Origin: a virus
Taxonomy: Duplodnaviria > Heunggongvirae > Uroviricota > Caudoviricetes
Direction: 5' to 3' (one strand)
Length of the DNA stretch: 32,977 nt
Virus record (IMG/VR): IMGVR_UViG_2713896908_000011
Span: 1-32,977 of that record
The translations under genes were made by a program, and so were the position numbers. Positions 15,118 through 17,127 of the stretch are shown piece by piece. How positions within the stretch are numbered: position 1 is the stretch's first letter; each line of letters opens with the position of its first letter. The notes under the pieces are model-generated. The model worked only from the letters and a program-made list of their open reading frames with translations, made no database searches and was not told where the DNA came from.

Positions 15118-15338
15118 ATCCTCACCCCGATGTACACGGATGGTGCAATATGTTTGAAAAGATCGGAGTCTACGGGTTATTTTTTACAGCAAACGTTGTT
15201 CTCAACGACGCTCAAAAAATAGAAGCTTAAAATAATGCGGTTAAATATTTTAAAAGAAAAACCATCTATTAAATAATAATGCGGGATATATTTTTCTATT
15301 TAGTGTACTGTATACGGCCATTTATACAGGAAAAGCCT

Positions 15339-15509
15339 ATGTCAGAACGTAAAGACTCAAAATCACGCCGTAATTATCTCGTAAAATGTTCCTGCCCAAA
15401 CTGTACCCAAGAATCAGAACACAGTTTTTCTAGAGTACAAAAAGGTGCCCTTTTGATCTGCCCTCATTGCAACAAAGTATTCCAAACAAATCTTAAAGCT
15501 GTTGCCTGA
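15339..15509 (+). CDS. small zinc-ribbon protein (CxxC...CxxC), function unknown
   Basis: Start set at the internal ATG preceded by AGGAAAAG (MSERKDSKSRRNYLVKCSCPNCTQ...LICPHCNKVF...). Two CxxC pairs; opposite strand to the flanking late genes. The track ORF starts at 15279. Confidence 0.5.
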   Translation: MSERKDSKSRRNYLVKCSCPNCTQESEHSFSRVQKGALLICPHCNKVFQTNLKAVA

Positions 15510-15568
15510 GTGTTTTGATTACTTACAAAGAGTTTTTATATTTTAATAATATATTTAAATCAGATAAT

Positions 15569-15593
15569 AAAAAACCCGCCTGCGCGGGTTTGA
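15569..15593 (-). terminator. rho-independent terminator downstream of the cold-shock gene (possibly bidirectional)
   Basis: Hairpin CCCGC-CTGC-GCGGG flanked by an A-run on the plus side, so on the minus transcript it is followed by UUUUUUAUU. Confidence 0.6.
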
Positions 15594-15790
15594 GATTGTG
15601 GTGCTTTTTGTGGTAGTTACCCACTTACGCACTTTGTATTGCTATGCCAGCAGTTAGCTTCTACTGTAAAACTATTCATGCAGCAAACCTGCACTTCACC
15701 ACAAAATGGGATTCAATACCCACAACTCTATCTGCATCTCTACTCAGGCATCAGCCTTCTTCGTTATCGTATACAGACAAGCTATGAATT

Positions 15791-16006
15791 TTAATCAGTA
15801 ATAATGACATTTGCTGCTGCAGGACCTTTAGCACCACTCTCTACAGAGAAGGTAACCTTTTGGCCTTCAAATAAGGTTCGATAATTATCATTCTGAATTG
15901 CAGAAAAATGCACAAACACATCTTTACTACCATCAACAGGAGAAATAAAGCCAAAACCTTTATCAGCGTTAAACCATTTTACTAAACCAGTCATTTTATT
16001 TGACAT
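15791..16006 (-). CDS. cspB: cold-shock protein, CspA family (CspB-like)
   Basis: [53 protein letters not shown]... carries the RNP1 (KGFGFI) and RNP2 (VFVHF) motifs and matches E. coli CspB (a Qin prophage gene) as I recall it. AAGGAA Shine-Dalgarno is present. Confidence 0.9.
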
Positions 16007-16170
16007 TCTACATTCCTTAACTTGAGCCTTTCGGCATAAATGATTTGTATAACAGAAACGACTTCGTACTTAATTGGAGAGACTCAAAGAAGGAATAAGT
16101 GAATAACACCTGAAATGAGAACTGCTTTAGTAAACTACTTCGTATATCGTCTGTTCTTCAAACCGACGCT
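16007..16170 (-). promoter_or_regulatory. long 5' leader of the csp gene with cold-box-like element
   Basis: CspA-family mRNAs have ~160-nt structured leaders. The minus-strand sequence here contains GAAGAACAGACGAUAUACGAAG, reminiscent of the cspA cold box (UGACGUACAGA). Boundaries are approximate. Confidence 0.4.
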
Positions 16171-16247
16171 GTCATTAACGCATAGTTGTACACCTGGAAG
16201 CAATGTTTATTTTAGACATCCAGCCATCTCCCCATTTAAAACACAAA

Positions 16248-16267
16248 AACCCGCTCATTAGCGGGTT
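16248..16267 (-). terminator. candidate tR'-like terminator downstream of PR'
   Basis: Perfect hairpin AACCCGCT-CATT-AGCGGGTT flanked by A- and T-runs; on the minus transcript it is followed by UUUUUGUGUUUU. About 50 nt downstream of the predicted PR' start. Confidence 0.55.
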
Positions 16268-16314
16268 TTCTACTTTTTCTCAACACCGGACATACAAAGC
16301 CCATTGTTGAGAAA

Positions 16315-16343
16315 ATTTTATCCATGTTTTTTGAAAAATGCAA
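16315..16343 (-). promoter_or_regulatory. candidate late promoter PR' (sigma70 -35/-10) just downstream of Q
   Basis: Minus strand reads TTGCAT - 17 nt - TAAAAT (-35 at plus 16338..16343, -10 at plus 16315..16320), 30 nt downstream of the Q stop, the canonical PR'/qut position in lambdoid phages. Confidence 0.5.
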
Positions 16344-16374
16344 ACATCATGTCGATATCTTCGGCGAAAATTAT

Positions 16375-17127
16375 TTATCTTGTCACTTTTCTCAACAGTG
16401 CTTCTGCATATGCTTCTTCCTGCCAGCACTTTGTAACCAGTTTATCAATAACATCAGCATACCCCTTGTACCACTGATAATCCGTCAGGTCCGGTACCAG
16501 TTTCTGGACATGATGCCGCGCCAGTGTGGTTGGTAAACGGCTAAACCGATTTCCATTGCAACGCCCACAAATCTTATAAACCGGCGTGCCATGAAGCCGG
16601 GTTCTTTTTTCATCCAGGACAATACCTTTACCCTTACACCCTCTGCACGCTGTGCTGACTTCTCCCTTACCATGGCAATGCTGACATAGTTCCTTCACCC
16701 ACTCTTCCTTGATAACAGATTCCCCGCTTCTGGAGTGTTTCACCACTTCGCGCAATACATTATGAAATCCAGTACCAGCACAATGCTCACAGCGAGCCTT
16801 ACTTGCCGCAGACCTGGAATAATCAGCAAAGGCAAAATTCACAAGGTAAGGGATGATCTGTAACCGGGTTTCTTCACTCAATTTATTCAATGTCGGGTTA
16901 TCCAGTGCCATCGCGTAATTGAGCAGACCTTCGATCGCAAACTGAGGATCCTGAACACCAACTTTTGCCAGGAATAAGGCAAAACCCAGTGGTGCTTTCG
17001 ACTGCACCATCCCCTGCGCAGCCATCACATCTGTAATTGTTAAACCACCCGAGCCTGTCGCCGGTGCGTCATCACTCAATTTTGGAGATTTTGGGGAGTA
17101 ATATTTTGGTAAGGCTTCAAGGTTCAT
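16375..17127 (-). CDS. Q: late-gene antitermination protein Q (phage 21/82-type family)
   Basis: 250 aa with multiple CxxC pairs (CEHCAGTG, CQHCHGKG, CRGCKGKG, CGRCNG) typical of zinc-binding Q proteins; positioned between the early/replication genes and the lysis genes. Confidence 0.8.
   Translation of the reverse strand: MNLEALPKYYSPKSPKLSDDAPATGSGGLTITDVMAAQGMVQSKAPLGFALFLAKVGVQDPQFAIEGLLNYAMALDNPTLNKLSEETRLQIIPYLVNFAFADYSRSAASKARCEHCAGTGFHNVLREVVKHSRSGESVIKEEWVKELCQHCHGKGEVSTACRGCKGKGIVLDEKRTRLHGTPVYKICGRCNGNRFSRLPTTLARHHVQKLVPDLTDYQWYKGYADVIDKLVTKCWQEEAYAEALLRKVTR

Follow-up and report, generated by a model that had tools for sequence, protein, structure and literature searches.

A probable lambda-type PR'-qut-tR' late-gene control cassette in a lambdoid prophage

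Main finding and prophage context

The window, the whole 32,977-nt stretch of viral DNA analysed here, is a seemingly complete lambdoid prophage, and directly behind its Q antiterminator gene lies a compact module that is very probably a lambda-type PR'-qut-tR' late-gene control cassette. Such a late-control layout had been proposed from a sequence-only reading, and it is supported by a true Q gene upstream, lambda PR' geometry, conservation of the module with Q, late genes on the same strand and an RNA 3' end in the homologous module of Escherichia coli K-12. Cassettes of this kind are well known, and the module itself is widespread, occurring in Qin, SfV and the Stx2c and Stx2k phages.

The genes of the prophage run in the order CI-like repressor, replication genes, Dam, RusA, KilA-N, DUF968, Q, module, cspB-like gene, holin, lysozyme, Rz, terminase, portal and protease-capsid. 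The repressor gene lies on the plus strand, and all genes from the replication genes onward lie on the minus strand. Beyond the module, a cspB-like cold-shock unit with a cspA-type 5'UTR thermoregulator (16167..15775, CDS 16006-15791, minus strand) is identified by Rfam RF01766 (155.9 bits; gathering score 78) and by Pfam CSD (E 1e-31); it looks like an accessory gene, or 'moron', inserted between tR' and the lysis genes. The lysis cassette, also on the minus strand, consists of holin (15117-14902), lysozyme (14902-14405) and Rz (14420-13971), matched by Pfam Phage_holin_2_1, Phage_lysozyme and Phage_lysis. A second hairpin (15591-15572), which scores as a terminator on both strands and coincides with a weak, sub-threshold isrK-like Rfam match, lies between the minus-strand csp gene and a plus-strand ORF for a small zinc-ribbon protein of the YnfU family (15279-15509; PF23499, E 5e-31). 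Q-modified polymerase would need to read through this second hairpin to reach the holin gene.

The Q antiterminator

The Q gene (17127..16375, minus strand), which ends in a TAA stop codon at 16377-16375, encodes a 250-aa protein of the lambda-Q family (Pfam PF03589, E 9.5e-54). Its identity is 99.6% to the Q of phage SfV and 99.2% to an Stx2c-phage Q. A PDB sequence search matches it to lambda Q in 7UBM (E 1.7e-38) as well as in 4MO1 and 7UBJ, and these lambda Q structures are the only solved Q proteins matched by sequence. Aligned along its entire length, it is 35% identical to lambda Q, a single 48-aa gap interrupting the alignment, and the nozzle-forming N-terminal segment of lambda Q (PMC9388147) is kept in the window protein.

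The gap reflects a 48-aa insertion in the zinc-ribbon arm, at residues ~121-168, which adds two CxxCxGxG motifs and brings their total to four. With these four motifs the arm resembles the DnaJ domain that has two zinc centres (Pfam DnaJ_CXXCXGXG, E 3e-7, slightly below the gathering score), and Q proteins of ~250-273 aa are common elsewhere, as in HK225, ST104 and Klebsiella phages. In lambda Q, the arm contacts both the Q-binding element (QBE) and sigma region 4. Because the insertion sits in this contacting arm, the binding geometry of the window Q may differ from that of lambda.

The late promoter and its lambda-like geometry

On the minus strand, PR' consists of a -35 hexamer TTGCAT (16343-16338), a 17-nt spacer and a -10 hexamer TAAAAT (16320-16315), and its position some 30 nt past the Q stop was called correctly, since TTGCAT begins 31 nt after the stop codon. 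The -35 form TTGCA(T/A) is kept in 43 distinct promoter sequences of the family, and relatives carry TAAGAT or TAGGAT at -10. The arrangement TTGCAT-17-TAAAAT is indeed present, but its description as a near-consensus sigma70 promoter is overstated: TTGCAT agrees with the consensus TTGACA at three of six positions (TAAAAT with TATAAT at five of six), and a promoter scan finds 9 such sites in 5 kb where 6.8 +/- 3.1 are expected, so that the hexamer match alone stands at chance level. PR' is taken as real because it is homologous to lambda PR', not because of its hexamers.

This homology is captured by a composite pattern abstracted from lambda, TTG-N20-TANNNT-N6-AANNATGGG, which matches once in the 33-kb window and in none of 100 shuffles. 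The pattern is present once in 95 of the 101 collected loci, nearly all of which were retrieved through the Q protein alone, and in most of them it begins 35 nt past the last Q codon. Across 43 distinct promoter sequences of the window's Q clade, the consensus reads cTtgca.ttttcAAaAaa..TGg.TA.gATT.tc..AAcgATgGGc. Set beside lambda (TTGACT-17-TAAATT-TGACTC-AACGATGGG), the window (TTGCAT-17-TAAAAT-TTTCTC-AACAATGGG) has the same 17-nt spacer, 6-nt discriminator and -10-like pause element at +1..+6 followed by GGG; its -35 is weaker (TTGCAT vs TTGACT) and its -10 stronger (TAAAAT vs TAAATT). At the level of the whole region the two are alike in having a PF03589 Q, a promoter directly after Q and an intrinsic terminator before the late genes.

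A CATGAT box directly 5' of the -35 (16346-16351, minus strand) is kept in the family consensus. Lying 2-3 bases 5' of the -35, it is common to the window family and lambda, where it reads GGCATGATA-TTGACT.

The Q-binding spacer

The QBE of lambda is situated between the -35 and -10 elements (PMC4914094, PMC9388147). From this position, together with clade-wise variation, the QBE of the window is predicted to occupy the 17-nt spacer TTTTCAAAAAACATGGA (16337-16321, minus strand). Ten of the 17 bases are identical to the lambda spacer, and both share a TT(G/C)AA...TGG pattern, whereas the QBE bases of the upstream half differ.

Comparison across loci reveals distinct spacer classes. The window's Q clade conserves TTCAAAAA..TGG, the lambda clade carries TTGAATAAA.TTGGG, and a third class, T(A/G)RCGGAAA.TGGC, occurs in a Q clade ~44% identical to the Q of locus L019. 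A pattern search independent of Q uncovered further lambda-type cassettes, with a lambda-family Q gene upstream of 105 of its 120 matches. The spacer thus varies by Q clade and therefore fits an element of Q-specific binding or specificity. The expectation of a qut site within about 16270..16345 agrees with these predictions, as the putative QBE and the predicted pause element (16308-16300) both fall inside that interval.

Start site and pause element

Lambda-like geometry predicts the transcription start (+1) at 16308 on the minus strand, following the TTTCTC discriminator. The predicted sigma70-dependent pause element AACAAT (+1..+6) and a discriminator-like GGG (+7..+9) together form AACAATGGG at 16308-16300, and their spacing from the -10 is identical to that in lambda. 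There, AACGAT at +1..+6 and GGG at +7..+9 make up a sigma70-dependent pause element that holds RNA polymerase at +16, letting Q load (PMC4005639, PMC5001585). The corresponding pause in the window is predicted at ~+16 to +18 (16293-16291, minus strand), given the sequence and the role of the elemental pause (PMC5001585), and the candidate RNA end U17, the next base G18 and a G at -10 fit the elemental pause pattern. From these features we infer a start at ~16308 and a pause at ~+16/+17.

The AACAAT form is specific to this window; lambda and the relatives carry AACGAT. None of 2.9 million viral contigs matches it exactly, and it is absent from complete E. coli genomes, where the best match is 97.2%. 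Relative to the closest relatives, G-to-A changes within 16303-16320 (minus strand) move the -10 (TAGGAT/TAAGAT to TAAAAT) and likewise the pause element (AACGAT to AACAAT) toward the sigma70 -10 consensus. In lambda, a pause element nearer to that consensus increases arrest (PMC4005639). Lambda also has a TTGACT just 5' of the pause element that re-positions sigma region 4, whereas the window offers a poor -35-like TTTTCT, matching it at 4/6 positions, and the family consensus is only TT.TC.

The terminator tR'

The intrinsic terminator tR' comprises a hairpin at 16270-16245 and a U-rich tail, GUGUUUU, reaching 16238 (minus strand), and it is identified by terminator scan, folding, covariation and the K-12 homologue. 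The hairpin reads G-AAAACCCGCU / AAUG / AGCGGGUUUU-U and folds in isolation at -14.2 kcal/mol. Its 10 Watson-Crick pairs and closing G-U, followed by the U-rich tail, justify its earlier description as a perfect hairpin with a U-tract. The distances and boundary assigned to it need correction: the hairpin begins 44 nt past the -10 (38 nt past the predicted start), not ~50 nt past the promoter, and a feature end at 16248 cuts the stem three bases short and excludes the U-tract, the true extent being ~16238. The RNA 3' end is predicted at ~16241-16243, giving an RNA of ~67 nt, compared with 193-194 nt for the 6S RNA of lambda. The terminator scan calls the hairpin on both strands, and the A- and T-runs on either side give tR' a bidirectional appearance.

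All relatives sampled except those with lambda-type late regions, where tR' lies at +193/194, possess a strong intrinsic terminator whose T-run begins at +47..+67. In this sample the lambda-Q family as a rule has the compact form, which terminates at ~+50 to +70, and the 194-nt form of lambda is the exception. Examined sequence by sequence, the stems of the relatives differ and yet pair (CCCGC/GCGGG, CCUCGC/GCGGGG, CCUCGC/GCGAGG, CUCGC/GCGAG and GGCCCAGCC/GGUUGGGCU); the terminator stems covary among relatives. RNAalifold on a MAFFT alignment of 25 transcripts recovered a 5' hairpin and missed the terminator, because variation in linker length misaligned the stems. An Rfam search with all families, at E up to 1 over 15400-16700, gave no match to the module beyond sub-threshold leader families, the cspA thermoregulator further along being its sole genuine hit. 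The records of SfV and Ayreon annotate the homologous hairpin as a terminator.

An RNA 3' end in the K-12 homologue

The same module lies behind ydfT/quuQ in Qin, a cryptic prophage of E. coli K-12 MG1655. Term-seq data (Adams et al. 2021, PMC7815308, supplementary file 1) list an 'orphan' 3' end at NC_000913.3 1642356(-) in at least two growth conditions, and this position, equal to 1357 of locus L101, falls 8 nt after the homologous stem. The K-12 RNA ends in ...GCGGGUUUUGUGC, and the flanking sequence in the catalogue reads ...AAAACCCGCTGATGAGCGGGTTTTGTG^C. With a predicted start at 1642422, the RNA running to 1642356 would measure 67 nt, Term-seq fixing the 3' end only.

The Term-seq end shows the terminator to be functional in cells, with minus-strand RNA ending there without prophage induction. 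Such an end in uninduced cells is what a constitutively active PR' followed by tR' should produce, and the orphan 3' end of K-12 is thereby explained as tR' of the cryptic Qin prophage. The supplements of Cappable-seq and SMRT-Cappable-seq hold no matching coordinates for the start site of the homologous module in either genome version, and literature searches on quuQ and ydfT returned nothing on this promoter. In K-12 Qin, the region between tR' and the lysis genes also contains cspF and ynfS, both lacking from the window.

Conservation across relatives

Relatives were drawn from viral contigs and from species-representative genomes, among the latter Escherichia, Shigella, Mangrovibacter, Kosakonia, Phytobacter, Atlantibacter, Scandinavium, Buttiauxella and Entomohabitans. 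In all of them but locus L015, the whole module is kept next to Q, down to ~40% Q identity. Beyond the terminator the content differs by phage, with a csp gene in the window and tRNAs, a methylase or stx2 in others. Since the post-terminator sequence differs in this way, the module is linked to Q, independently of whatever genes follow it.

The closest group, formed by Qin (ydfT/quuQ), SfV, mEp460, Ayreon and the Stx2c/Stx2k phages, shares the window's Q clade (94-99.6% identity) and has the same module. These phages have AACGAT and mostly TAAGAT or TAGGAT at -10, where the window has AACAAT and TAAAAT, and they are mosaic from ~+20 onward and after the terminator. The same module occurs in 1448 of 5426 complete E. 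coli genomes, about a quarter. The copies in the Stx2c and Stx2k phages are 84-85% identical, and in phiSTEC1575-Stx2k the module lies upstream of stx2AB.

A natural hybrid is seen in locus L094 (IMGVR_UViG_2565956633_000004, ~2285-2400), where a promoter and spacer of the window family are joined to the lambda 6S region exactly at AACGATGGG. Because the junction falls exactly there, the shared pause element appears to act as a recombination joint between modules. In two other records, short 'hypothetical protein' genes are annotated over or abutting the module (L102, OQ243220.1, 4096-4185; L002, MF807953.1, 1376-1489); these are probably spurious gene calls.

Structure of the late transcript and a possible small RNA

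The minimum-energy fold of the predicted transcript places, in order, a 5' hairpin, an A-rich linker and the terminator, with a z-score of -4.65 for the whole RNA. The 5'-terminal hairpin (16308-16282, minus strand) is predicted to pair nt 1-4 with 24-27 and nt 6-10 with 18-22, and the single-stranded linker GAGAAAAAGUA (16281-16271, minus strand) would connect it to tR'. Linker length and sequence vary among relatives, from 3 to ~25 nt.

Over 25 relatives, 94% of the cells of the 5' hairpin are paired. A strict covariation test is not significant, with one double change and 20 of 500 shuffles reaching the observed percentage paired, because the 5' half is fixed by its role in DNA and the sequences are related. 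The only double change is the AACA/UGUU of the window, with a G-U intermediate in L004 and L090. Of 15 divergent lambda-type transcripts, lambda included, 14 have a paired 5' end, against 2.5 expected when nt 10-32 are shuffled. In the minimum-energy folds, nt 2-4 pair with a downstream (C/U)GUU at variable distance (+19..+28), and the partners of the GGG segment differ: CCCAU, CCUGU, CUCAU, GUCUA and GUCCG. Sites of this hairpin in the window (16282-16308, minus strand), in lambda (L001, 787-811) and in loci L103-L222 are treated as a lead only.

That the constitutive ~67-nt PR'-tR' RNA is also a trans-acting prophage small RNA besides its role in the switch, like StxS or as proposed for lambda 6S, seems unlikely. 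StxS is alike in being a short constitutive RNA from an antiterminated late promoter, ended at tR', and this PR'-tR' product of Stx1/Stx2a phages binds Hfq as an sRNA (PMC7547250); the predicted two-hairpin fold with its low z-score and AGAAAAAGUAGAAAA linker, and the abundant orphan 3' end at the homologue in uninduced K-12 cells, point the same way. However, the phages that make StxS encode an unrelated 144-aa Q, and StxS itself is processed from a 258-nt precursor, with demonstrated Hfq binding and targets (PMC7547250), the window RNA being a predicted molecule. The cspF.ydfT intergenic region is listed in a table derived from Hfq RIL-seq, yet the same table scores it very low, with an sRNA probability of 0.0024. 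The linker is moreover the least conserved part of the RNA, being nearly absent in L014, L017 and L019, and no Rfam family matches. Two readings can be put forward jointly, though with low probability: that pause-element RNA (AACGAUGGG or AACAAUGGG) always folds onto a downstream (C/U)GUU to give a 23-28 nt 5' hairpin in all lambda-family late transcripts, including 6S RNA, and that the ~67-nt RNA of the compact family acts in its own right as a small RNA made constitutively by the prophage, even in K-12.

Alternative readings of the module

The main competing view holds that the hairpin is a mere terminator of the early or Q transcript, or an insulator of csp, and that the promoter hexamers are fortuitous. 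It draws on the chance-level hexamer match, on the A- and T-runs around a hairpin called as a terminator in either direction, on the convergence of K-12 cspF and ynfS upon this hairpin from the opposite side, and on the K-12 3' end, which could belong to an RNA started upstream. It is nevertheless highly unlikely, given that -35, spacer, -10, discriminator length and AACGAT/AACAAT-GGG keep lambda geometry in all relatives but L015, and that these elements persist despite entirely different post-terminator sequence (tRNAs, methylase, stx). The exact joining of a window-family promoter to the lambda 6S region at AACGATGGG in L094 also argues against chance hexamers.

Phages 82 and 21 had been suggested as comparators, and their cassettes follow the same general logic of Q gene, promoter, pause and terminator; a qut site of either type is nonetheless scarcely credible here, as both the Q family and the pause position match lambda instead. 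The window Q matches PF03589 only, and neither PF06323, the family of Q82, nor PF06530, that of Q21 (PMC9388147), is matched in Pfam; it likewise fails to match the solved Q21 structures, lambda Q providing the sole solved Q structures that it does match. Q21 acts as a dimer on a direct-repeat QBE. In phage 82 a discriminator-like GCC lies at +15..+17 and the pause at +25 (PMC5001585), whereas the window, like lambda, has its element at +1..+6 and GGG at +7..+9. An 82- or 21-type cassette is rejected on Q family membership and pause-element position. A leader-peptide or other attenuator upstream of csp deserves hardly any credence either. Rfam does report Trp, Leu and rnk leaders over 16237-16333, weakly and below threshold (20-24 bits against gathering scores of 41-55), but the terminator hairpin accounts for all of these matches; the sole ORF (16343-16236) begins within the -35, upstream of the predicted start, and csp has its own 5'UTR element from 16167.

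Proposed mechanism and significance

In the lambda-type cassette that we favour, host sigma70 RNA polymerase would initiate at ~16308 on the minus strand from the PR' sequence TTGCAT-17-TAAAAT, and sigma70 would then re-bind the -10-like AACAAT-GGG (+1..+9) to give a scrunched pause at ~+16/+17. Without Q, polymerase would terminate at 16270-16238, near 16242, releasing the ~67-nt RNA, and the csp, lysis and structural genes would stay off. Q, made from the early operon, is predicted to bind the promoter spacer at 16337-16321, to load onto the paused polymerase and to form an RNA exit-channel nozzle, as described for lambda Q (PMC9388147). The modified polymerase would read through tR' and through the terminator at 15591-15572 into the late genes. 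What this scheme predicts is where transcription starts and where it pauses, that Q binds the spacer, and that read-through depends on Q.

The module marks where late-gene transcription of the prophage is switched on, which is textbook biology. Knowing its exact parts, namely the Q-binding spacer, the pause element and the terminator, helps in reading differences in toxin expression among Stx phages.
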